A stretch of 64,000 nt of DNA from Cirrosporium novae-zelandiae (lineage: Eukaryota), in the NCBI GenBank assembly GCA_026023565.1, contig JAPETS010000005.1, positions 682,001 through 746,000 of the forward strand, read 5' to 3'. Shown in pieces: positions 11,742 through 49,900 of this stretch. The notes below the pieces were generated by a model that saw nothing but the letters and a program-made list of their open reading frames with translations, was not told the origin of the DNA and did not search any database. Positions within the stretch are counted from its first letter, which is position 1; the number at the start of each line of letters is the position of its first letter. Position numbers and translations under genes: made by a program.

Positions 11742-13807
11742 GATGATAGAATTGACATGAAAATGAATGTTGATGAGAGAGAGAATATCAAAGTGATTGT
11801 TAGGATGGCATATCTGTATTGTGCATTCTGTATGAAAATAACAGTCTTCTTTAATTATAGACGAGGATGGAATTCAGAAAATGACGACAAGTTGGTGGTG
11901 TTTTGGACTTTGTCTAAGTTCGGAACGGAAGGCATAGTAAAAAGGCTAATAAGCAACCAAAGGATTAGACAACACCAAATGTTTTCTTTTATAAGTTTAT
12001 CCTCTACTTCTATAAATTTTCTTACTAATTTTTGAAGAATTCTGACATTTCTCTTGAAATGGTTGGAAATGTGGGCAAGTTGTCCATGGCGTATTTTGGA
12101 GTACGATTACGCTCCATCAATACCCTTGCCTTGGTTTTGAGGCCAATATTAATCTTCTGAACCAACATTTTTTAAACCTAAACCATCAATACCTACACCA
12201 GTTACTCGAGTATACACTTAAATAAAAGTCTCACTGAGCCTATATCTTAGGCGTCGTAACAGTTGTTAATGTTTTTTCTACTTGTAGATATTCGGTTTAT
12301 TTTAAATAACTTTCATCTTATAAGCATCGACGATCTAAATATCAAACTTACTGGATAAGGAAGCTCCGAGACACGGGCAGTGGGCGGGGTGGTATACGAG
12401 CAATGAGATATCTTAGACAGTGGTGCCCAAGTAATTTTCTGTTAACGCTGGAAGTATCTCTGATACATGACGTCCGTATGCTTGGGTCAAACTCGGTATA
12501 GATGGTATCTTACTACGGAATAATGCTCCTAATTTTCGAACTGTGATATGCTGAGAACCATTTTCGCCGCTATGTTGACGTTCTTGAGACGGACAAGACT
12601 CTAAAACCTAATATTCTAGGAGTGCTCCCATCTTATAAAGAGAAAAGTCGGAATTTAAAGCAGCTAAAGCAGCTACATTTTCTTGGGAACCTGCGAGTAA
12701 GGCGGTGGTGAATCTGCTGATGGCAGAAGACATGATGATATAATGCGAACTTCCAGTTATTCAGATACTAGGGGGCCTTTAATTTGAAAGATGTCGAGCA
12801 GAGTATGAATATACTAAAATAAAGTAACAATGTTGATATCTATGATGAGGATTTTCGTAGGCACGGCCTAGCAATATCCAAACTCGTGCGGGGAATAGAA
12901 AGGCTATGCAAATCCATGGTGTGGCCGCGTTCACTCACCATTGGCTACCTCTGGCAGTATTGCCTATGACCATCTAAAATGGCGTCTTTTCTATTGCAAA
13001 ACCGGCCCAAATCCATCTACCATAGGGTCAGCCTTATGTCTAAGGACACATAGAGTTAGTGATAGGATTTAGCCAAGACGTCGGATAGATACCTTTGCGA
13101 GTAGGGCAGGTCATTATATATAGCAGCAGGTCCTTCATATCAACATCGTTAAAGAATAACATCTCGGCGTTGGAAAATAGTATCATAAGGAGTTGGGTAT
13201 AGGGAATATGAGTATAAGGTTAACGGTTAATAGAGACGCCATTTGCGAGGAACCACTTGGTCTAAGATGTACAAACTCTAGGTCTAAGGTTTCTCAAACC
13301 CCTTATTAGACCAGATATCAAAGTATCAACTTTTATGTAGAGTAGTTATTGTTATTTTGAGTATGGGCTTCGGGGATGATTAACGAGATATACTAGAAAT
13401 TAAGTTTACGGCATTTAAACGCCATTCGTCCATCATCAATCAGTCTTTGGTGTCCCGCCTCGATAGGCTCAATCGATTCGCCTACAAGACCGCCTTAACG
13501 CCGACTACTTGCTGAGACAACATAGCTCCACTACTTCCTTACTCCATTCCCTCTTTTTCTGCATTCTTTGCTAGTTAATGGTCAGGCTGTTTCTGCGATT
13601 CTATTTCATGATTAATCGGTGTTGGGAGACAGACCACCATGCTATCCTAGTAATGTCCCAGCGATGAGTGCGAAAGAATCCTCGAAACCTTGCAGGTAAT
13701 CAATGCATCCGTTCCATGGTCTTTGTTGGAACTGGAATTACGAGAACTCGAACTGATCGCAAATAGTAACAATGGAGTGGCTGCTTATCTCGACATCCTG
13801 AACAATC

Positions 13808-16800
13808 ATGGCTGCTACTACCAAGTTTACCGCCGATGAAACGCGGCGTACAACTCTGTCTCCCAGACCCAAAGGACGCGGTAGGCGCAATATCCTTCCT
13901 CGATACCCTTCGCATTTCCTTCATTACGTACCTCCTTTAGCTATCACCTATCAAGACATTGCAACAACTGCAAGATCAAAGTAGTGAATATACAAAGAAA
14001 AAAACTGACATAGATTCGGGGATAGAGAACGCAAAGAATACACTTTGTCGAAATATCACAATATATGGCCACTGTCGATGGGAGGACAAAGGTATTATCT
14101 TCTGAATAAACGTATATCTACAGTCAGTTTTGCTGAGCTAGACATAGGGTGTGCTTTTAACCACGATCCTTCTAAGGTGCAGACATCTCAATCTGCTGAT
14201 CGGTATATTCATAATATTCCCATAGGAGAGGCCAACTTGAGATGCTAAAATATATATAGTAACAGAAAGCGGTTAAACGTCGACTCTCCAAGTTTTACCC
14301 CGGCCTTACTCTCATCACCCACCTCGAACACAATCAAGAAAACTACTACTATCTCACCCAAGGCAGCCAGTGCTGCTCCTTTTCAACCGAAGACATCCGG
14401 AGGTAATTCTTATCCAAATACGCCAATCGCGGAAATAGTAACATAAAGGTGACAGAAAATGTAGCGTCAGGACTTACTACACCAAAATCGACCTCGTGGA
14501 GCGTTCATGATGTTACAGAATTCCAACCGCAGGCATTTGAATCCCTCTCTTTGGTAAGATATTTTCATAGATGTTCTCCCTTTTATTCAGATTTCTGTAT
14601 TTTATTCGACTTTCCGGTCCGACGAGTTGGGTAAATACTCCTAAACCTGGACCATGTATTGGCCATAAGGACTTCCAAGCTGGTTAATAGGACCATGGCA
14701 TAGCCTACAATCCCCGGGATCACATACCAGGTGCTTGTTTTAGAATGAAATTGCTATATGGATTGAAGACCAATAAACAACAATATTTCTCGTGGATTCT
14801 AGATGTTCTAATCTGGACTCGATATTTGAATAGATGATCATCGACATGCCTACTCTCAAAACTACGAAATGTACCATTCAAGATAGGGGTTCTTATTTCT
14901 AGAAGCCTATATCATCCATGTTTTATTTGACGCTTCAAACATAAAATGTCAGGATAGGTTGAGACCTAGGCCTATTTTCTTGGATGTATTTTTCCTATGA
15001 CTCGAATGAACTATTTCGGCGTGAGATTGTTATCCCTTGACATTCTGTGCAGTGACAGTTTTCAAGTTTTTGAAAGTCCAACCTATGATCGTCTCTCTAG
15101 AAACATGCCTGGCTATAGTGGGATCGTACTTCTACGTTGGTCAAACTACATTTGCGTCGCGCCCCATCCTCTTACTTTCATATGATTGTCTTGTGCGCAA
15201 ACCTCGATATGTGTACCAGGCTAAGCTTTACTACAGGGAAATGGTCCAAATGCTCTCGCTGTTAACTCATACGACCCTTTTACTACTACACCACTTGCAA
15301 CCCCCTCAAACGGTATTACTCGTCAGACGCAATCAAGTTTAAACTTATATCAAGATGCGTCATCTTTAGCTCCATCTGCTTTCTACTCCAACCCGAACAG
15401 CTACCAAATGCCGGTAGGCTCCCTGATATGAGTTGTCCTGCTAGTCACCCTAATCAAGATAATCTAGGCACAATACCACCTTTACGCCCCGTGGGGCCCA
15501 TACAAAGAAAGATTACAATCATTTCAAAAGCCAGTTCGTGACTTTTTTATCCCGGATAATCTCCGAGAAGAGTTAGAAAAAAAGAACCACGCTGCTCTTC
15601 AAGTTCTTCCTAACCTTACACTTCGAATTGATCCCTATCATACTCTCGTTCCCCTTGACACGAACAATATACGAAATGCCACTTTATTCGGATATCCAAG
15701 CTGGGTCTACAAAGCAATATCAAGCAACGACGGGAAAACATATGCTATACGAAGAATCGAAGGTATTTAATTAAGAAACCTACATTACATTCTCTCCTAA
15801 CAGGCCTAGGTTTTCGTATGACCAATGACAAAGCCATTCGGCCAATGCATACATGGAAACGTATCGTGAACAGCAGCATAGTAACAGTACATGAAGCTTT
15901 CACCACGCGCGCTTTTGGAGACAGTTCTCTATTATTCGTAACCGATTTTCATCCATTAAGCAAGACCCTTACGGAAGCCCATTTCGGCCCTCCTCTCCAC
16001 CGATACCAAGGTCGCAATCTAAGCAGTAATCATGTCCCTGAACAGGTTCTTTGGGCATATATTGTCCAGATGGCTTCTGCTCTATCTGCTATCCATAGCA
16101 ATAACCTAGCCGCAAGAATAATAGACCCTTCAAAGATCCTTTTGTCGGAAAGGAATCGGATTCGACTTAACGCCTGCGCTATTCTGGATGTAGTCCAATA
16201 TGAGACCCAACCAAACATCCAGCAGCTTCAACAACATGACTTTGTGCTCCTGGGAAGATTGATTCTTGCCATAGGAAGTAACAATATTAACCCTATGCAG
16301 AATCTTCAGAAGGCCCAAGAGCAGTTTAGCCGTTACTATACCGCGACACTTACTGCCACGGTGTCTACACTTATGGATGAGAGTCAGCAGAAGGATCCGT
16401 CCACCCTGATTCAACATCTATCAATACATACCCTAAGTAATTTCGACAGTACCCTTCATTTCAACGACCAATTAAACAGTGAACTGAGTCGCGAAATCGA
16501 GAACGGACGGCTCTTACGACTGATGACTAAACTGAATTTCATAAACGAGCGGCCCGAATATGAGCATGATATGCAATGGTCGGAACATGGGACGCGATAT
16601 TTTATAAAACTCTTTCGTGACTACGTTTTTCATCAGGTGGATGCGCAGGGGAACCCATCAGTAGATATGGGCCATGTTCTGCTGTGCATGAATAAACTTG
16701 ATGCGGGAGTGGAAGAAAAGGTAGAATTGGTGAGCCGGGACTCGCAGAGTTCTTTTATCGTCAGCTACCGAGAATTGAAGACGGAGATTGAGAGGGCTTT

Positions 16801-37009: not shown

Positions 37010-39122
37010 ATGTCTGAATCTCCCCAAACTGCTTTGTTTGGAACCTGGAAGAGTCCTATCTCAGCCAGCTCATTGGCTGCCCAAAAAATAACCCTGGAAG
37101 AAGTTGAAGTTGATGTAAGGATGACCATAGTCCCTATCAGTTGGTTAGTACAGAACAAGGGAATCATCAGTCTGATGCATACGTCTTTTACTAGGAATCA
37201 ACAGGCAGGATTTACCACTTGGAGGAACGACCCGGCGAAGGTGGTCGAGGCTGCATCGTGGAGGATACAGGGTCTGGTCCTAAAGATGTGCTGCCCAGGG
37301 GTTTCAGTGCTAGGAGCGGAGTCCATGAATATGGAGGAGCCGCAATGAGGATTGGTCCGAATGGCCAAATTGTATTTACTGACTGGGATACCAGAGGGGT
37401 ATATTCCCTTGATCCCGACTCCGGCACCGTCACTCCGCTTTTGAAAGCAGAATCCGAACTTCGATATGCTGATTTTGACGTGCATCCATCATCGAAATGG
37501 ATACTTGCTGTTCAGGAGGATCATCGAACAGGACAGAACCTTATTGTCACCATCGACGTTACCACCAAAACTTACTCTCCGGTTGCCCAAGGTTGTGATT
37601 TTTACATGTTCCCTCAATTTAGCCCTGATGGGAAGAGTATCTGTTGGATTGAATGGAAACATCCGGGTATGCCCTGGACAGGAACCACCTTGAAAGTTGC
37701 GGGTTGGGATGATATCAAAGGCACCGTTGGAGAAGCTCTCAAGATTGCAGGGAATGAACTAACAGAAAGCATAACCCAACCGAGATGGAATAAAGACGGG
37801 AGTCTATTATTCACGAGTGATACTACCGGTTACTGGCAGCTGTATATTCTTCTGAAAGGGGAAACCAGAGCCCGACAAATCAAACTTGAGGGTTTCGATG
37901 ACGCCGAATTTGCAGAGTGTGACTGGCTGCTTGGCAGGTACGTGGAATTTCTTACCGTTAATCAAAGCAGGATATATAAAATTTAGGTGCCTAACTGACT
38001 GATTACTTTAATAGTTGTACTTATGTCCCTCTCAACTTAGAGACAGTAATAGCAGCATACACTAGAAATGCCACCAATGGATTGGTTTTGATCGATTTGA
38101 AATCAGATACATGCACAGAGCTTCACTATCCATATGTCCAGATAGAATGTAAAGCTCTCCGAAGAGTATCTAACACAAAATATGCTCTTATTGGAAGAAC
38201 CACTCTGTCTCCGCAAGAGCTCTGTCTCCTCGACGTTTCCGACCCTTCTTCAAAAGCAATTCTTAAGACGTCCATAAACATTGACTTGCCATCTTCAACA
38301 TATTCCCAGCCAGAGCACATATCTTTCCCCCGGGTCTTCGGCCAAGACCGAGGTGGGTTAAGTCATGCATTTTTCTATCCACCTTGCAACCCTGCTTACC
38401 AGGCTCCATCGTCAACCAAACCTCCCTTGATCATATATGCTCATGGTGGTCCCACGTCTCATGCTACCCCCGGGTTAAGTCTGGAATGCCAGTATTGGAC
38501 CACCCGCGGCTATGCCTATGCCCAAATTAACTATGCTGGGTCTAGTGGCTATGGGCGTGCATATCGAGACCTCCTATATGAAAACTGGGGCATTATTGAT
38601 ATTGCAGATACTGCCAGCCTCGTTGCTTACATCAATTCCACCGGCCGCGTAGACCCTACTCGCGTCGGCATCATAGGAGGTTCCGCAGGCGGATACCAGG
38701 TGCTCGAAAGCTTATGCTCATACCCGCAGTTGTGGGCCGGGGGCGTGAGTCGCTATGGCGTCAGCGCCGTTAAGCCACTTACAGAGCAAACCCACAAATT
38801 TGAAAGCCGATACATCGATTTCCTTCTTTTCGCCAACAAAGCTCTCACACCCGAAGAAAAAGACAAGATCTACAGGGAACGCAGCCCGTGCTTCCAGGCG
38901 GACAAGATCACAGCCCCACTTCTGCTTCTGCAAGGAACGGATGACTGCATCGTTCCCCCAAACCAAGTGTACAAAATGGAGCAAGTCATCAAGGAGAAAG
39001 GGGGCGATGTCAAGGTGGTTATGTTCAAGGGCGAGGGTCACGGATGGAGGATGGGGAGTACGGTACTGAAAGCAACCGAGGAGGAGGAAGCTTTTTTCAA
39101 GAGAACACTTGTCAGAGAATAG
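37010..39122 (+). CDS. S9-family (prolyl oligopeptidase/acylaminoacyl-peptidase-like) serine peptidase; introns 37115-37194 and 37938-38014
   Basis: Motifs 'FGTWKSPIS', 'RSGVHEYGG' and 'HGGPT'; nucleophile 'GGSAGGY'; Asp 'LLQGTDDCIVP'; His 'GEGHGW'. Confidence 0.92.
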
Positions 39123-41861
39123 AATGAAGGATATATATCACAAAATCGGCGTGGGTGGCTTTCTGTCATTTTTTTGGCTTCTACGGATCTCTCAACATGG
39201 ACATGGCTATGGATTAAGGCTGCCTGCTTGCTTGCATTTCTCGGGCTCTATTTTTTTTTTTTTTTTTTCATCCAATCTCAGCCCATATCAACTTCATAAT
39301 ATCATAATTTTGACTGATTGGTTGATCGATTAAATTGAAATCAACTTGATTAAATGGCTGTCTATTTGACTGGAGATGCTTTATCCTCCATTAAATACAG
39401 GTAAATGTAAATGTACACAAGGAGTCGGCTATTTTATACAGAAGGGAAATAAAAGTTAGGGATTTGGGTATATCATTTTTCCACGGTTTAATAAATCAGA
39501 AGAATTTCATTCGTCTAAATCCTTATCTATGGATAAATGTTGTATTTTGATCGAGGGCGGATAGATAAGTAATGCGGCGTTTGATAATACACTCCATGCG
39601 TATACTGTATGTAACGAATATCCTCAAAGGCCTTACCCTGTGTGCTGTCTTACAAATTGCAATGGAGATCATGAAGCGGAAGGGGACTTCAGAGTGGCCG
39701 CGTAGTTTATTATTAAATAGACTTACTTTCTGAGATCCCTTACACAGCTTTCCCGATCCTATACCTTTCATTTGACTCATCACGGTATGTCTAACCATTG
39801 TTTCTGACAGGAATATTTTCTTATTGTTGGGCTTTTTTGAAAACTAGACGGTCTATCCCTACCAAGCATATTTCGGAAACGAGCTACCTAAAAAGGAAAT
39901 GATGCTCGAATTAAAGATGGCGGCTATGTGCAGGGCGCGCATGACGAGAAAAAGATCATGTAAAAGCAGATATAGCCTAAACTATTATGTTTCAGGATAG
40001 TATATTAGACTACCACTATTTTCAAAATATAGGTATCATAGATGGACAGGCAAAGGCAAGAACAGTATTTACAAAGGATACAGTGCTCTGCCATTATCAC
40101 TATCAAAACTTTCATACGTCTCATAGCTTCTATATCAGCTTCTCCGTTGAATAATTTCTAGTCAGCTTGTCATGTCATCGGTTCTCAAATATACCGAGAC
40201 TTGCTATCAGTCTCATAGGGGTCACCGGCACCAAGACTAATAACAATGTTAACAGTAATGTCTAATAGGCGAGACTATTTTTCAATATTGAATAAATCAT
40301 AACTCATTAACTGATGTTAGTAGATTAAATATACTTTACTGGCGAAGGAAACGGTGGAGAACAAGGAGAAGTGAGAAACCGCTATTTATCCATCATGACT
40401 TAGCCAACTTAACCGAGCATAGCACATGAGTCTATCTTGACCTTGACGATTTATAACGGTTGTACTCTTCATCTCTCCCCGAATCGGACCCCCCATAAAA
40501 GATAGTGTATTCTCAACATCTATATAGGTTATCCGCCACTTTCAAGCTATACTTGGTTATAAAGAAGAAAAGATATATTCGACCAGACATTCGGCCTGGC
40601 TGTATAAAACCACCACAAAAGACTTTTATCAAAGGAGAACTGCCCAGTAACGCATGCCTATTAAAAAACTAAGGAGGTAGTTAAAGAAGGAAAATAGGTG
40701 AATGTCCCCACAAGTACACCATAGCCTAACGGATCGCTAGCAAGACTGAAAAGTGACAGCGTATAAACAGCCTATGAAAAACATATAGAAACCATCGGTT
40801 CATGTGGATGAGCTATAACGAGAGATTGAGAAACTAGATATTATTATAGGGCTTGAGAATGCTAATTTCAGGGAGCAGGAGGATGAACCAGAGCAGAGAT
40901 TAGTAGGCTTTTGAAATGGGTAGGTCTCCGGGATACCGGCCCTCCATTGCTTGCGCGTTAGGGAAGTATTTCGGCTGAAGTATCGTATGTTGCTTTGAAG
41001 CCAAATAAGTTATCAATTAATCAGTTAGATATCTGGAGATTTCTTATAAAACAGGTAATTGACGTGTTTCATCGGCGTCTCCGAATCTTACAAGTTCGGC
41101 GTATATTTGGTATTCCCGATCTCGATCTATACAATACATACATAATTACAATACGCCTCACTCAACACTAAAAGCACTTAAAGATTTAGATCAAAGAACG
41201 TTGAGTATGTTTTAATTATATGTAATAACGTTCTTATTAAGCTTACGTCCCGAGTATGTGTCGAATGTTATTTATTACTTTATTGGAGAATTCGATTATA
41301 ATATCTGTCTTGCAGCGGGACGGCGCGAAGCGGTACTGTACCTACATCACTTGGGGTGTCCACAGCAAATTTTCCATGATCCTTCAGGAATCCTTTGATA
41401 GTCTAACACAATGAATGCGCCTTGCCAACTGCTAACTAACTTGCAGCACGTGGTGGACAGTCAGTTATTCACATTAGGAAATCATGAAATTGCATTCTGT
41501 CTTTAGCTACCTAACTGATGGAGTTATGGAGGATAATGACTTGATTCTACAACAATGCTATCATTTACTACCATCGGTTCTAAACATGCATGGCAATGCT
41601 ATCCCATAGCTTCCTGTTTATGCCCAGTTTGGTATTATTTACGGGGCCTAACAATGAGATGCCCATTTCTACAGCGCTTTGAAGCTACATGGGGTCTCCC
41701 CTCTTCTAAAAAATCATCTATGTTGTGTTCATATCCCCAATCTGAAAGGCAGACAATCCTATTAGGAGTCCCGGGGGGGATATATAATGTGGGCTGTACT
41801 GTTAAATGTCTACTTGCTCTTCAGCTTTACCTATCATTACCTTCCTTGATTTTTGTTTGAG

Positions 41862-44800
41862 ATGAAGCTTTCCGTTCATTACTTGAGATTTTCTCTTACC
41901 CTTCTTACTTTCTGTCATATAGGATGGGCAGGTAGCGATGGTACATGCAGCGACGACTCTCCATGCGACACAGGATGTTGTAGCATCTAGTAAGTCATGG
42001 GCGTCCCTATTGCACAGGGTAAGGGATATTTTAGCTAACATGAGCACAGTGGTTATTGTGGATTTGGTATGGTTGCTTGATTCGAGTAGGCTAAGAACCG
42101 ACCTAATTTCTTGATTTCAGGTTCCGATTATTGCTCGGATGATTACTGTTTATCCGATTGCGATCGCAAGAGTGAATGCGACGCAGGATGGGGCTCAGAA
42201 TGGTCAGAGTCCGAAGACTGTCCATTGAACGTCTGCTGTTCGACATATGGCTTTTGCGGTAGGTCTGGAATGTGCGCGTTTATTATGAATTATATTTGAC
42301 TGTTATCTAGGAACTACCTCTGATTTTTGCGGGACTACAACCGTTACTGAACCTTGTTCGGGAACCTCCTCTAATAACCGTACTATTGGCTACTTCGAAG
42401 GATGGAACAGCGAGCGATCTTGTGGTGGTACGTGATGGCGAAATCCCTACATGATTTATTTTTGCAAATCATGAAATGAAAGAATCATCCTTCTAATTGC
42501 GTGTTTCAGTCATGGTACCAAGTGACATCCCAATCGCAGATTATACCCATATATTTTTTGCTTTTGCTTATATCGATCCCGATACGTATGAGATGGCAGA
42601 CATGGCCTCTGATGTAGGAGCTTTGTACGATGATGTTACTGCCCTGAAAGATGACAAGCCATCGCTTGAAGTCTGGATCAGCATTGGAGGTTGGACATTC
42701 AATGACAATGACACAACAACGCAACCCGTATTCTCCGATTTGGCCGCTTCTACGGATTATCAATCATCATTTTTCAGCTCTTTGACTAGTTTCATGGAAG
42801 ATCACGACTTTGATGGTGTCGATATCGATTGGGAATATCCCGTCGCCGGCGATAGGAGCGGGTCCGATGAAGATTTGGACAACTATCCAACATTTCTTCA
42901 AAACCTCCGCAGCGCTTTTGATGATGCTGGTCACGAAGGATATGGCCTGTCCATTACCCTTCCATCATCATATTATTACATGCAGAACTTCGATATTGTC
43001 AGTATTTCATCGGCCGTTGATTTCTTCAATGTCATGACATATGATCTCCATGGTATGAGACCCCCAGTCCTTCCCTCTCACCCCGAAAAATCACCAAACC
43101 ACAGAAACGTTCCGATATATGACTAATAACATTTAGGGACATGGGACGCAACGGACGGACTTGGTAGTATTGTTCAAAGCCATACGAATCTGTCGGAGAT
43201 AAAGGACGCTATGGATCTCCTGTGACGTAATGACATCGAACCCTCCCAGGTCAATATGGGTCTTGGCTTTTATGGTCGAAGTAAGAGAAATTTGTAATGA
43301 TTAAATGCAAAAACATAGCTGACGCGTTGCCCAAGGCTTTACTCTCAGTGATTCGTCATGCACTGCACCCGGTTGTGGATTCTCTTCAAGGGAGACTGCT
43401 GGATCTTGAACGGCAACCTCTGGATTTCTGTCAATTGGCGAAATTGAGGACGCTATCGCTTCTGGAGCGACCACCACATTCGATTCTGATGCTGCTGCCA
43501 TGTACGCTGTATTTGACACCGACCAGTGGGTTTCGTATGATAACAATGAAACATTGTCCCTGAAAACCGATTATGCAAATTCACTTTGTCTTGGCGGGTG
43601 AGTATCATGTTTATCATGATTTATATATTGCTGATGATAGCGCAGCACCTTAGTGTGGGCCGTCAGCTTGGATGATAGTACTACTTCGCTATCTAACACC
43701 CTTGGTAATCTCACTGGTCAATCCGCCGACGGTGGCGGTCTTGTCGACAAGGAGCCAACTGGCGATGGAGGCAGCCTGACATCAACATCCAGCTGTGAAG
43801 ATCTCGAATGTTCGTGACTGGCTCTATATTCTAAAGGAGTTACACTGACGAATCCAGCATACCAAACAAAGTGGGATGTAGACTTGAACTCAGCCATGTG
43901 GGATCTAGTAGATGCAGCCACCTACTTCCAAAGTCAGTCCTCTCCCCCCTGATTAGGATATTGCGTTGAAACCGCTTTTGCCTCTTGGAATAAGTGACTC
44001 CTGCATTAAAGTCCCTTCTAACGGTGTTTCAGGCTGGCTTTCCGACAATGCAGATGATGCGTCATCCGACATGGCATCAGCCTTTGCAAAGCCATGGGGG
44101 ATGAAGCAAAACTTCATATGCGATGCAGTGACGAACTCCTGCGACAGGCCCGACTGCAGCGACATGGAAGACCCAAGTGCAGATTATTCCGGTGCAGCTT
44201 ATATGATTATGGTTTCTATCACAAATCTCAGCCAGTATTGGGCCAAGATGTACTCGGCGCTCTCGATGTCGCAGTCTCAGTTTGCCACGTTACAACAATC
44301 CCTCCTGACCTTATTCTACCCAAATAATACTCCCGACGACACCACCTTTGACGAAATCATGAACGGTCTTACCACAGCCATGGGCATCATACCGAAATTC
44401 GGTGGGGACGCTGGGTCCGTAGCGAACACGCTCATTAGCGGTGCATCGACAGGCATGCAGAAAATTCTGACATCGGTGGATGAGACCTTGGAAAAATTGG
44501 CAGAACTCGAAGCGTAAGAGACAGCTTTTTTTTCTGGGGTCAAAATGCTTTTTATTGAACGCTAACACCTCCCCCCCTTTGTTAATCTCGTAGGGCCGAA
44601 AACACTTATTACGTAGCAGCGTTATCGCAAATTGACTATGCAAACATCGGGCTAATCGACGAATCCACGTACAACGGCACCGACATTGACGACCTGTTCG
44701 ACGAGGGCGAGTGGGTCGACTATACAGCTCTTCCCGTCCTGAACGACGATACCAGCAAGACCAAGATTACCACCACAGAGCTAAACGCATATTATTTCGA

Positions 44801-45688
44801 AATCATGGTCGCGGGAGTCGCAAACTGGTCGTGGAAGAAGCAGAATTGTTATGTCATTTCTCTCGCTATGACAAAAGATGAGTGTAAGCGCCAATCTCCC
44901 GAGATACCACTCTCCTCAACACCTTTTTTTTGCCTGCCCCCCCCTATATCATGTGAAGTTGAAACTGATGATGGATACGTTGCACCTATGCAGTCAACGA
45001 TTTAGATTCGGGTGTAGCCGAGGACGACAATTTGAAGTTATATCGTGACGGACGGGGATTATACTTCCAGTGGTACAGAACACATCCGCGTTCATCTTCA
45101 ACGTAATTCGCATCCATGATCCGTTTACGCTAACAACCCCTATTCCAGTATCAACCCACCCTCCACCGACCCAGGTTGGGAACTCTTTTACCCACCAGGC
45201 TATGATGTAAGTCCTCTCTCCCCCATTCCACCCCCACATCCACAACCGCACTCACCAAACTAACCGCCCACCTTTCCCCACCCCAGGACGTCAACGACGG
45301 CACCTACAGCTTCACAATGCAAGACGTTCTAAAATCTGTCACCGGCGGGTACAACTACACGCCCGACGCCCACCTAAGCACCTACCTCGCCGACACCGCC
45401 ACAGAGCAACTCTCCCTCTTCGACCTCGGCGTCTTCAACATGCCCCACTGCAGGCTCGGAGACTCGTTCGAGCTCTCGGCTTTTAAAACGCTGATTAAGC
45501 AGGATGTGGGCACCGAGTATACGGGTACGACTTCTGATCGGAGTAGCGCGTGCTATTGTATGGATTTGGAGGATGGGAATGGGGTGTCGTTTTCGGATAT
45601 GGTGGATATGGAGGCGTTGGAAGAGATTAATTGTGGGTCGGATTGTACGTATATTTGTACGGCGTTGAATGTTTGTACTTGTGAGTGA
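41862..45688 (+). pseudogene. Subgroup-C (killer-toxin-alpha-like) GH18 chitinase with hevein/CBM18-type Cys modules and a long C-terminal domain; 14 exons, two in-frame TGA codons (43223-43225, 43407-43409)
   Basis: Signal peptide, Cys modules 'CDTGCCSIYGYCGFGSDYC' and 'CPLNVCCSTYGFCGTTSDFC', 'SIGGW', intact catalytic 'FDGVDIDWEYP', 'MTYDLHG', 'MGLGFYGRSF', 'QWVSYD' and 'LVWAVSLD'. Stops occur in 'MDLL*RNDIEP' and 'AGS*TATSG'. Confidence 0.82.
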
Positions 45689-46936
45689 GTGAGTGGGTGA
45701 TGGGTGAGTGGGTGGGTGAGTGTGCTACTGACTGACTGATTTGTCATGTGATTCAAATGTATATATATACATACTTTATATACCCAACCAACCAACCAAC
45801 CCCAAACTTATTTAATTTTTGTATATACTTATACATACATACATACATACAACCAATCCCAAATCCAAACTAATTATCTATCCCACAAATCCCACCAAAA
45901 CCAAATCTATATATAGATATATCAAAAAGAAAAAAAAAGAGAAAAAAACAAATCCTCTCCCCCCCCAATTCAATTCTTAACTTCTTAAATAAAACATAAA
46001 ACACAATCCCTTCCTTTCTTTTAGTTTACAATAGATAGGGGATTGAGAGTGTTGTGTTGGATACCACATGTAAATACCATAAATATCAGGTTCGGGTTTG
46101 GGGTTCGGGTTCGAGTTCAATTCCCAAGAGCCAAGATGCGCTCAGCGCTCGTTAGTGATTAATTGGTTTAATCGGTCACAATGGTAATTATCTGGTATTA
46201 GTGTGTGTTCTTCTCTATGTAGGTACTAGGTGGGGGAGACCGACCGCATGGCATGGTATGGGAGAGATACCTAAAGCTCTAAATAATGAATAAGGACGAT
46301 AACCAAATTTTTTTGTTTTTTAGATATGCATTGTACTGTACATGTACACATGACAATAGAAAGAAAGATAGACATAACCTCGGCGGAGAGAGAGAGAGAG
46401 AACACATAGACTATGCATATTCATTCATTCCATTTCCATTTCCATTTTTCTATTATCCCCCTTTAAAATGTGTTTTTTTTGGTTTCTAAATTCCAAAATA
46501 AAAAGAAAAGAAGAAAGAGACGAGAATACATTCAAAAAGGCTAAGTAAGGCAACGCTCGCTCGCTCGCTTGCTTGTTTGTATAACTGCACTCATTGTCCC
46601 TGTTGCATAAAAAGCCAAAAAGGGAATAGAGGCAAAGGGGGGAAAAGACATTTGAAAAACTCGTAATTCACATCCCCTCTTGACTAAGAATATCCACGTT
46701 AAAAGGTTTTTTTCGTTCAACAGTAAGCAGCCAAGTAAAAGTCAATCATTCGCAGAACGCTTCTCACCTCCCAAAGTATTCACGACATTGTGCCCGAAAC
46801 TTTTGTATGTTCGATTGCTCGACGGCAGTTTTGTATTGCACATCCATTTCCATCCAGTCCCAAGTCAACTGGCCCGTCGGGCAGATGCCAACCCCTCTTC
46901 CCCGTTAAACCAAACCCATCATCCAAGATTGGTCAT

Positions 46937-49900
46937 TCAAAAGATTTCTTCACAACATTCCCAATTGTGCTGTTCTCTCCTTTTCCAGTATTCGCCATTA
47001 AAGGCCCAGTAATCCTCTCCTGTAACAGGATGCTTGCTCTTGCAAAACCACCTCGGGATAAATTCTTCACCCATCGCCTCTCTCACGCGTCGGGTTGCAC
47101 GCTGCTTCTCTTCCAATCGGTTCTTCTCCTCGGCAGCAAGATCGTATTCCCCATTTTCCATAGCGCGCTGGTCAGGTCGGTGGCGTGTATCCGTAGGTGC
47201 GAGGTGGGGGCGGAGGGCATCGGGGAAAGCGTTGAGCGTAAGAACGAAAGGAGTGAGATTGAAAGGGACACCCGTGGGTCGTTCATGAACTTCCCATACG
47301 AGGAAGGCTTGCGTTGAACCTGGTTGATAGCCATTACTCGAACCTTGTGGTGGCGGAGTTAGAGATCCCTCATACCCGGGGGTTAGACGAGCGTAGATCT
47401 TGTCGTTCCAGCGGCCACCCATACTCCATCGTGTGTTGCCGTCTTTATCCATAACCTTTCCGGAAACGTGGTAAGCAGAGCTGGCTTTCCAGCCACGAGG
47501 CTTGAAGTCAAGCATACAGACTTCGCCAGTATTCCAGTTCTTAATTTCCATAGGACCATAGTTGTCAATGGTGGGATTGCCGGTGATGATACCAATCACA
47601 GAGGATGTAACCTTCTTCCATGTATATATTTCCTCGCCGCCAGTTGATGGGCGCAAATGCAAGAACCAAGTACCGAGAGGATTGACGTCAAAAGATTTGC
47701 CATAGAATTTAGACTTCACCGCAGATTCTCCATAGTAATCCCATTTTGGTGATTCCGCATAAGCTGCGCCAATGGGAGGATGATGGCTGACTTGCTCAAT
47801 GAAGAATCTAAAGCCTCTATCTGGTCTGGCATATTCATAGGTCTCTCCAAGGAGGGGATTGAAGGGTTTTGCGACTCGATCAATTGTGGAAGCATATTCG
47901 CTCGCGGCAAATGCAGCAACATAGACCAAACGTTCAGTTGAGTCGGTTCTCTCGGCTGCAAGATCGAGAAGCTCGGTATATTCCATATCTTCTGCCACCC
48001 GTTGCAGGAAAGATGTTGGTTCGTTGAAAGATACTGGGAGAGTCATCTTGGTCATGTCCTTGCCAATCATGGATTTCAGAATACCCTAAATATAATTAGT
48101 AATCACATCTAGACAAGGTTGTAATTCAGCTTACCCAAAGTGAAACTTTTGGTCGATTGTCCGCATCCAAATTAAGTCGGTCACGTGGAGGGTCCTCGTA
48201 ACCATTGAAGCCGGGTTTTATCATTAATTCTTTAGTTGCCCAGGGATGTTCCAAGAGTGACTGTTCTTGCTCATTTCCATTTGGACTTGCCACCGTTGGC
48301 GGCATCTCCATGACCGTTATTTCTCCTGCATCAACGGCATCAAAGAATTCATCATCCTGTTCGGACTCGGAATCGGATATATTCGTTAGTTGTGCGAGAG
48401 TCGACTTTCTTCTATTTCCAGCATCTCGAACTGTCAAAGATCTGCGACGAGCGGATAGCAGAGCAGTTCCATCTTCATGAATCGGTATTTGTTCCAATGC
48501 TTCTGCGAACTGCTCTTCTACGTGAACTGAGGGAATGTTTGCACTCATCGGACGGCTCTCAGACTCAAGAACTTCACGTAAAACGCGTTTTGTACGCCTC
48601 CTCTTGTCTTCCGAGACTCCCATCCGGTTTTGCAATTCTTCCTGTTCTCTTGCAACGCGAGCCATACTTTCTTCCCACATCTTACGAACATCAATCTCTC
48701 GATCGAGTCTATATTGCCAATATGCATCGCGGTCGCGAGATATCTTGAGCAGATCGGTGACTAGCCCATGAAGGCTACTAACTGCCGACTCATATGCAGT
48801 AAGCGCTTGAACAATCGTTGGATCAGATATTCTTGTGTGCGGATGTGCAGCGCGTTCGGCTGATAGTGCAGCGGAAACCTGCCCAAGCAGATCTAGTTGC
48901 AGTCGTGCAGACTGGGCAGTGATATTAAATGCATCTTTATTGGCAGGCTGAATTTCATCCCTACTCGTGTCATCGCCATAATCGTCATCATCATCATCAA
49001 GATCGTCAACCATGGGTGCGCTTGGTAGTCCGGCATGGCTTGTAGTTCTGCGGTGTTCATGGGCTGGGAGACTTGCTTCGTACCCTGAAATTCTGTCGTC
49101 ACCATTGATACTTCCAGCAGCACTCTGAAAACTTTGTTTGACGCTAGTTCCCTGGTAACTAGCAGTTGTTGTTGAAGGAACGAAACCTTTACCATTGATG
49201 TTGCTGCTCTTGAGACTAGAAACATCCTGTGTTTCTTGATTAGACTGAGTTCGGTCGACTTGTTCCATGCGCGCTTGTCGTAACATATCTGCTTCTCTCA
49301 CTTTTCGTTTCTCCTCCTCTTTAGCTTCATCCTTAGCCCACTGTATAGCATTATTCAAAGCCCAATACCACCTTTTAGCTTCCACTACGTGATTTGCTTT
49401 CAAATGGTATTTAACTGAAGACTTTCCATGGATCTCAAATCTTGTCTTGTCTTGAGGATCCATGTGTAACCTGGCTATTCGCATGTTGATTGCGCCTCTA
49501 CAAGCCGAGTTTGCATCATCTGTATTGGTTAGACGCTGTTTACATATATCAAGAGCAAGTAATTACCTTGATGTTTATAATAGCTCAGGACTCCATCTTC
49601 AAGTACAAACCATCTCAGCTTATACCCGCTCGTATAATTGGTCCATTTTTTCAAGTAGCCTTTCATTTCGCGGCCTTCTCGACCTCCAGGAGCACCACCC
49701 TCAGATACTCCGGTGGACGCAGAAAGATTATAAACGTTTCCCATAACAGCCTTTTCTTGTATACCATTTCGAGCTACCGCTGCAGCCGGTGACCGTTTGA
49801 GAATGCCACGGGTTTTGTCGTCTTTAGTGACATCTTGAGGTAGTTTTCCTTTTCGATCACGACGAAATGGATCTGCACCATGCATCAAAAGGAGCTGTAT

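Follow-up and report, generated by a model that had tools for sequence, protein, structure and literature searches.

Among the described systems closest to the interrupted chitinase gene considered here are the zymocin-like toxin clusters, which have been tied to LysM-bearing chitinases of GH18 subgroup C-II, whereas subgroup C-I is without LysM (bioRxiv 10.1101/2024.10.25.620242). In what Heneghan, Salzberg & Wolfe report of their distribution, these clusters are found in four classes only, and Xylobotryomycetes is not named among them (bioRxiv 10.1101/2024.10.25.620242). Genes whose premature stops are mended in the mRNA offer another point of comparison. Restorative A-to-I editing of premature stops has been documented in Sordariomycetes (PMC10776026; PMC11156358), as in the premature-stop-corrected (PSC) pseudogenes in Fusarium graminearum and in Neurospora crassa. 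Premature stops can also be read through by the ribosome. In yeast, readthrough of UGA inserts Trp, Cys or Arg (PMC4150775), and the yeast data presented in PMC4748822 indicate that C at the +4 position makes stops exceptionally leaky, that UGA-A favors the Trp-tRNA, and that UGA-C and UGA-G favor the Cys-tRNA. Incorporation at a stop is described as far below 0.1% for most genes (PMC5133446).

The gene examined here lies in a 64,000-nucleotide stretch of DNA (the window) that was assigned to a metagenome-assembled genome (MAG) of Cirrosporium novae-zelandiae (Xylobotryomycetes, Pezizomycotina) by its match to a public protein. The exon 5 translation is 100% identical to this protein (P0001, 809 aa), a hypothetical protein from the same MAG. 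Splicing by coordinates and homology places the whole GH18 chitinase gene at 41862-45688 on the + strand, which also carries all gene features given below, with 14 exons and 13 introns. By coordinates, exons 1 through 5 occupy 41862-41989, 42050-42066 (a 17-nt microexon), 42121-42258, 42311-42427 and 42510-43052. Exon 6 (43137-43280, 144 nt) holds the first premature TGA, and exon 7 (43336-43597, 262 nt) holds the second. Exons 8 through 14 follow at 43646-43809, 43858-43932, 44033-44513, 44594-44883, 44994-45102, 45149-45206 and 45287-45688. All 13 introns are of the GT-AG type, and each measures 46-110 nt. This separate splicing reproduces the exon count, the 13 GT-AG introns and the microexon that had been proposed in an earlier note on this DNA, and it confirms the claim that the two TGA codons are the only breaks in a frame without frameshifts. 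The codon numbers given there as approximately 344 and 387 prove to be exact, and the totals of 2919 nt and about 972 aa were slightly off. The spliced frame measures 2928 nt with its terminal TGA (975 codons), and its internal stops fall only at codons 344 and 387.

Comparison with homologs provides a further means of judging this gene model. BLASTP alignments of 66 of the 119 homologs cross the microexon without a break, and the first 135 residues align with 94 of the 119. For the C-terminal part, 33 remote non-self homologs were found, 31 of which align at E<=1e-3, and 12 of which span exons 8-14 collinearly over >400 residues. The gene model is thus sound at both ends, given the alignments across the microexon and the collinear C-terminal alignments. 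Exons 5-14 also agree with the public model P0001 outside a stretch that the latter reads out of frame. No frameshift appears to be concealed within any of the inferred introns.

The domains encoded by this frame are those of a secreted chitinase. Two Cys-rich repeats that resemble CBM18 chitin-binding modules occupy residues 28-97 (41943-42318), as indicated by a weak Pfam match and by homolog N-termini. Exon 3 matches Pfam Chitin_bind_1 (PF00187) below threshold (E 1.8e-4, 22.1 bits versus a cut-off of 27.8), and the N-terminus is 54-66% identical to the N-termini of homologs that are listed with PF00187. CBM18-type N-terminal modules are a subgroup C trait, which the model thus displays. 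The GH18 catalytic domain (residues 118-470; 42379-43706), which is defined by Pfam and by a collinear alignment with 102 homologs, is broken by both TGA codons. Its Pfam Glyco_hydro_18 (PF00704) matches come from exon 5 (E 3e-41, profile positions 18-187) and exon 7 (E 4.2e-6, profile positions 244-304). The catalytic motif DxxDxDxE, which had been described as unbroken, is indeed intact as DGVDIDWE (residues 235-242; 42812-42835). Profile and motif therefore both identify a GH18 protein, and the uninterrupted frame of a functional member is missing due to the TGA codons at positions 344 and 387.

Several of these features recur in the GH18 chitinases that make up subgroup C (class V) in Pezizomycotina, including the DxxDxDxE motif, the N-terminal CBM18-type repeats, a length close to 1000 aa, and the subgroup C insertion FYGRSF...C..GC.FS.GG..G.C. 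The best non-self matches include proteins named 'class V chitinase' by their source, and most carry PF00704 and PF00187 together. Unlike its subgroup C relatives, the gene has two premature TGA codons, no LysM and a different C-terminal half. The label of a killer-toxin-type chitinase, which had been applied to this locus, is harder to sustain. Like zymocin alpha/beta-like chitinases and those of C-II toxin clusters, the encoded protein appears to be a secreted subgroup C GH18 enzyme. A quick IQ-TREE analysis of 103 rows, a tree without labelled C-I or C-II references, places it on a long branch within a clade of 21 rows (SH-aLRT 94, not starred), to which the three LysM-bearing matches all belong. 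Unlike the genes of C-II toxin clusters, it has no LysM, and no candidate toxin or immunity ORF was seen next to it. LysM (PF01476, CBM50) was absent from the exon translations, from P0001 and from all window ORFs of at least 90 aa. Likewise, no plausible secretion-like ATG ORF of at least 45 aa was found in 39120-41860 or 45690-46950, in a search that used no toxin profile and was directed at proteins that are very divergent and may have introns. There are no Pfam matches in the 2.7 kb upstream or the 1.2 kb downstream of the gene, and the adjoining genes are housekeeping genes. Overall, the subgroup C assignment holds, and the killer-toxin-type label is unproven from the sequence features at hand.

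The first premature stop is at 43223-43225 (codon 344) in the context ATG GAT CTC CTG TGA CGT AAT GAC (MDLL*RND), with C as the +4 base, at an invariant Trp site (LLWRN). The second is at 43407-43409 (codon 387) in the context GCT GGA TCT TGA ACG GCA (AGS*TA), with A as the +4 base, at an invariant Cys site (G-x-C-T/S). Both can be read in the window exactly where they had been noted. It is possible to imagine that these stops are absent from the genome, and that they arose through sequencing or consensus error or through fixation of a minority variant by the assembler. The window does derive from a metagenome-assembled genome, and its DNA occurs in only one public run (X1), which may be the assembly's own source. 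The other runs of that study (X2 and X3) contain next to none of the window's words. Logan contigs of X1 cover 41800-42482 (word depth 351.5) and 42453-45674 (352.7), and they show 0 differing letters, 0 gaps and no joints relative to the window. Both TGA codons are located in a single 8958-nt Logan contig with a mean word depth of 352.7, and the Logan assembly of X1 contains no alternative contig, indel or loose end at either site. Because a different assembler gives identical letters at about 350x, the assembly artefact that had previously been kept as an option is now unlikely. Logan contigs drop rare variants and X1 is one data set rather than an independent specimen, and so a minority intact allele could have been lost from this comparison. 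Two errors plus two odd adjacent codons within 190 bp would be improbable at about 350x. Both stops are real in the DNA data, and an origin by error is very unlikely.

What stood at these sites before can be judged from a conservation alignment of the 102 homologs, out of 119, that cover GH18 nearly end to end; the other 17 were left out due to partial coverage. Column 344 is W in 101 of the 102 homologs, with a gap in the remaining one. At column 387, C is equally common (101 of 102), and the one exception has V. The residues that had been expected at these positions (LLWRN and AGxCT) are therefore the residues found in homologs. A nearby AGG GAG (43389-43394) encodes R381 and E382 where homologs have G followed by G or A. 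Neither residue occurs at its column in any of the 102 homologs, and G is present in 78 and 73 of them, respectively, in agreement with the observation that RE sits where GG is expected. The accompanying suggestion of a G-to-A process stands only in part. A single G>A change separates three of these odd codons from the consensus (TGG>TGA, GGG>AGG and GGG>GAG), but the fourth, TGY>TGA, is a transversion, and no RIP signature was found. No close orthologue is present among public proteins, and the nearest homolog other than P0001 itself shares 65% identity in exon 5. Since the next best match reaches only this value, the Cirrosporium lineage is without a close relative in the database.

These data argue for a recently inactivated, subgroup-C-type secreted GH18 chitinase, which may be either a unitary pseudogene of young age or, in the sequenced individual, a null allele, and we place the probability of this reading at roughly 0.8. 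Disabling changes are present at columns that are conserved in functional relatives. From these lesions, we infer both a loss of function and a young age. On this reading, two independent point mutations produced the stops, one in the codon of an invariant Trp (TGG>TGA) and the other in that of an invariant Cys (TGY>TGA). Translation would then end at codon 344. The product would comprise the signal peptide and both chitin-binding repeats, followed by a (beta/alpha)8 barrel that is only about two thirds complete and would be unable to close. A stop that lies far upstream of exon junctions and is followed by a long 3' region typically leads to NMD. The chitinase mRNA is expected to be an NMD substrate because codon 344 is followed by eight exon junctions and the 3' region beyond it would be very long. 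The remainder of the gene is proposed to be intact because there has been too little time for further decay. The earlier ranking, which put pseudogenisation (or else an allele or artefact) ahead of recoding, is supported, in that the testable features of recoding sites are all either absent here or contrary to expectation.

The occurrence of TGA at a Trp and a Cys codon requires no special explanation. When every single-base change of the chitinase CDS was enumerated, 3.5-4.3% of the changes create a stop, TGA accounts for 27-29% of these, and Trp or Cys codons are the source in 51-63% of the changes to TGA. TGA at one Trp and one Cys codon is therefore the default mutational outcome, and both stops are indeed one base from the invariant W and C codons. 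The two TGA codons are separated by 129 nt of CDS, for which a hand estimate gives a chance of ~0.09. The presence of nonsense changes without a frameshift was considered as a mark of constraint and rejected. With this share of stop-creating substitutions and with indel-to-substitution ratios of about 1:10 to 1:30, a hand estimate gives a probability of roughly 0.1-0.3 for two stops before any indel. Thus, a lack of frameshifts does not speak for selection.

Two other routes to, or around, these stops were rejected. RIP prefers a CpA context. The gene has a TpA/ApT index of 0.65 and a (CpA+TpG)/(ApC+GpT) index of 1.21, like the values of 0.75 and 1.26 for the whole window. Moreover, TGG>TGA occurred in a CpC context, TGY>TGA is a transversion, and blastn and tblastn revealed no second copy of the gene in the window. 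Exon skipping past the stops would require omission of exons 6 (144 nt) and 7 (262 nt), which shifts the frame and would also delete the conserved LGFYGR strand.

It might be argued that the truncated 343-residue product is itself functional, perhaps as a chitin binder without enzymatic activity, and that the downstream part is decaying. The N-terminal chitin-binding repeats and a signal-like N-terminus are intact. Against this, the downstream 630 codons are fully open with intact splice sites, which is unexpected if enough time had passed for the truncated form to gain a function. A stop located eight exon junctions before the last exon should also trigger NMD, and a barrel left open at two thirds of its length would probably not fold. 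A functional truncated form is thus very unlikely.

Signs of decay elsewhere in the gene are weak. The model deviates at 8 of 115 columns that are at least 90% conserved (6 if the stops are not counted). The homologs have a median of 3 such deviations, and in 91% of them the number stays below 8. Its terminal branch is 0.62 versus a median of 0.15, in a clade that is generally long-branched. Both the excess deviations, which are modest, and the long branch could be lineage effects of an isolated lineage. Within GH18, the ratio of identity downstream to that upstream of the first stop is 0.932, compared with 0.959 +/- 0.049 in homologs, 26% of which have a lower ratio. Hence the part of GH18 past the first stop is not detectably more diverged than the part before it. 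These indications weakly suggest a very young pseudogene or null allele, fit an isolated lineage equally well, and are compatible with continued constraint. As a separate observation that weighs against a pseudogene, nothing is broken beyond the two stops, including the frame, 13 of 13 GT-AG introns, the catalytic motif and a collinear 480-aa C-terminal module.

If the stops did not end translation, some form of recoding would be needed. General reassignment of TGA was rejected because the 20 stop-to-stop ORFs of at least 250 aa in the window, with 8758 codons, contain 121 TGG and 0 TGA codons. TGA directly follows 6 of these 20 long ORFs, and the chitinase gene's own terminator is TGA. Pfam domains in neighboring genes, among them CASP, UBX, Pan3, oxysterol-binding protein, GH47 and ATP12, match their profiles over the full length. 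In this region of the genome, TGA thus acts as an ordinary stop. A selenoprotein was also rejected, since the whole window has 0 matches to SECIS or any other Rfam family at the gathering score, and since Trp is the expected residue at one of the sites. A search for tRNA genes in the window found none.

Ribosomal readthrough deserves closer consideration. Both UGA codons might be decoded by near-cognate tRNAs carrying Trp, Cys or Arg to yield a small, regulated amount of a possibly harmful full-length chitinase. The premises put forward for this possibility, that UGA-C is leaky and that UGA readthrough yields Trp, Cys or Arg, agree with the yeast data in PMC4748822 and PMC4150775, respectively. 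The first stop is a UGA-C, which the yeast +4 rule marks as leaky (PMC4748822), the residues known to be inserted at yeast UGA codons include the two that are needed (PMC4150775), and the remainder of the gene is intact. The distribution of the +4 bases is nevertheless the opposite of what would be needed, in that UGA-C stands at the Trp site and UGA-A at the Cys site (PMC4748822). Furthermore, with two stops in series, the yield would be the product of two small probabilities. Programmed readthrough combines a leaky tetranucleotide with a stimulatory downstream element, and this combination is not seen here, where the second stop is UGA-A. In the 90 nt of spliced mRNA downstream, there is no excess RNA structure relative to shuffles after either stop (z of +0.57 for stop 1 and -0.20 for stop 2, where the background along the CDS is 0.14 +/- 0.72). 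The match between the lost residues and those inserted by readthrough is explained by mutation, because near-cognate residues are by definition the one-base neighbors of UGA. Readthrough of both codons is therefore highly unlikely.

Even less probable is stage-specific restorative A-to-I editing of UGA to UGG in the mRNA, as in the PSC pseudogenes of Fusarium and Neurospora. The general claim that some ascomycetes mend premature stops in this manner agrees with PMC10776026 and PMC11156358, which describe the rescue of genes with premature stops in Pezizomycotina, and PMC11156358 treats as an open question which classes have editing beyond Sordariomycetes and some of the Pezizomycetes. Like those pseudogenes, the chitinase gene is otherwise intact and has a stop at a position where relatives have Trp. 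The resemblance does not extend much further. The corrected premature stops that are described in these accounts are UAG (TAG in the DNA), which are edited to UGG with U at -1 (PMC10776026; PMC11156358), and UGA or TGA appears nowhere in the main text of PMC10776026. The fungal machinery strongly prefers U at -1 (PMC11156358), but both chitinase stops are UGA codons in which the edited A would have G at -1. Neither stop thus has the UAG or the U at -1 of a corrected site. Editing would not restore codon 387 in any event, because UGG gives Trp at a site where 101 of 102 homologs have Cys, and a stop at a Cys position is itself a departure from the PSC pseudogenes. Lastly, the lineage is not known to edit, and according to PMC11156358, genome-wide editing was not found in either of two fungi from other classes, an Aspergillus of the Eurotiomycetes and a Botrytis of the Leotiomycetes. 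Restorative editing at this locus is barely credible.

A more elaborate proposal would be a locked toxin-type chitinase, which would be made at full length only if both UGA codons were bypassed by stress- or stage-dependent readthrough or by non-canonical editing. The two stops would then serve as a double safety catch on a cell-wall enzyme that is harmful to its own producer. Such an arrangement is extremely unlikely. Were recoding true, conditional stop bypass would be extended to a new fungal class and to UGA, which is unsupported here. There is a more general lesson to be learned from this example, which is that stops at Trp and Cys positions are no evidence for UGA recoding, as the near-cognate residues are the mutational neighbors of this codon.

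Inactivation by nonsense mutation in the recent past is most likely an ordinary outcome, and its recognition is mostly of housekeeping value. The chitinase gene merits annotation as a pseudogene or null allele. The public model P0001 evades the stops through a stretch of about 40 residues in the wrong frame, and it drops the secretion signal and the chitin-binding repeats. It is a gene-finder artefact and the wrong protein model for this gene.

The C-terminal half of the gene encodes a module of ~480 aa (residues 486-965; 43752-45655, exons 8-14) that is open throughout. It matches no Pfam family at E<=0.01, and when the last 465 aa of P0001 were used in a word-index search, only this protein itself was recovered among 8000 scored candidates. 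The ESM Atlas connects the module with DUF7872-type clusters, a match that can serve only as a lead.

The C-terminal half of the chitinase model (residues 486-965; 43752-45655) forms a module, some 480 aa long, for which no Pfam family was found. A full HMMER scan, in which the 160-aa exon of this module served as the query, returned 33 non-self relatives, all of them fungal and at most 40% identical, and those that carry names include proteins of Microdochium, Cadophora, Aspergillus, and Verticillium. When 17 relatives were scanned against Pfam, the module was found to be preceded by a GH71 domain in two and by a GDSL-lipase with FG-GAP repeats in three. The other 12 had no family above the curated cut-off, with one of these giving a sub-threshold match to DUF7872. 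Clusters of the DUF7872 type were also indicated for the module by the ESM Atlas, which can be taken as a lead only, and sub-threshold matches to this family occur in only two of 14 relatives. Overall, the module appears to have been swapped among secreted cell-wall hydrolases. In Aspergillus flavus, a putative toxin gene is described as adjoining a GH71 gene (Heneghan et al., bioRxiv 10.1101/2024.10.25.620242).

At the other end of the gene, a microexon of 17 nt (42050-42066), flanked by GT-AG introns of 60 nt and 54 nt, codes for GYCGF, the core of the first chitin-binding repeat. Homologs align without gaps over this exon, which supports it. The public protein record for the gene, P0001 (809 aa; 42512-45685), begins at the Met of exon 5, so that the signal-like N-terminus and the two chitin-binding repeats are missing from it. 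Furthermore, this model sidesteps both TGA codons by means of invented introns. Its residues 201-240 map to 43254-43280 and 43336-43428, in frames that differ from the GH18 frame. P0001 should be re-annotated.

Elsewhere in the window, the most RIP-like composition is found at 12001-16000 (TpA/ApT 0.93, substrate index 1.08, GC 0.416), although the composite RIP index of this stretch is nevertheless negative. From about 12030 to 15025, no ORF reaches 90 aa.

Upstream of the chitinase gene, 2.7 kb (39120-41860) contain no convincing ORF, and the GC content of 0.396 for 40001-42000 is the second-lowest in the window. This stretch is long compared to the otherwise compact gene spacing. For the Logan comparison, the contigs, an independent assembly, reach 45674, and the repeats at 45675-45750 were left out. 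Directly past the chitinase stop, the 3' flank (45690-45990) consists of successive short repeats of low complexity, with GTGAGTGAGTGGGTGA-type, ACCA(A)CC, TACATACA, and poly-A units.
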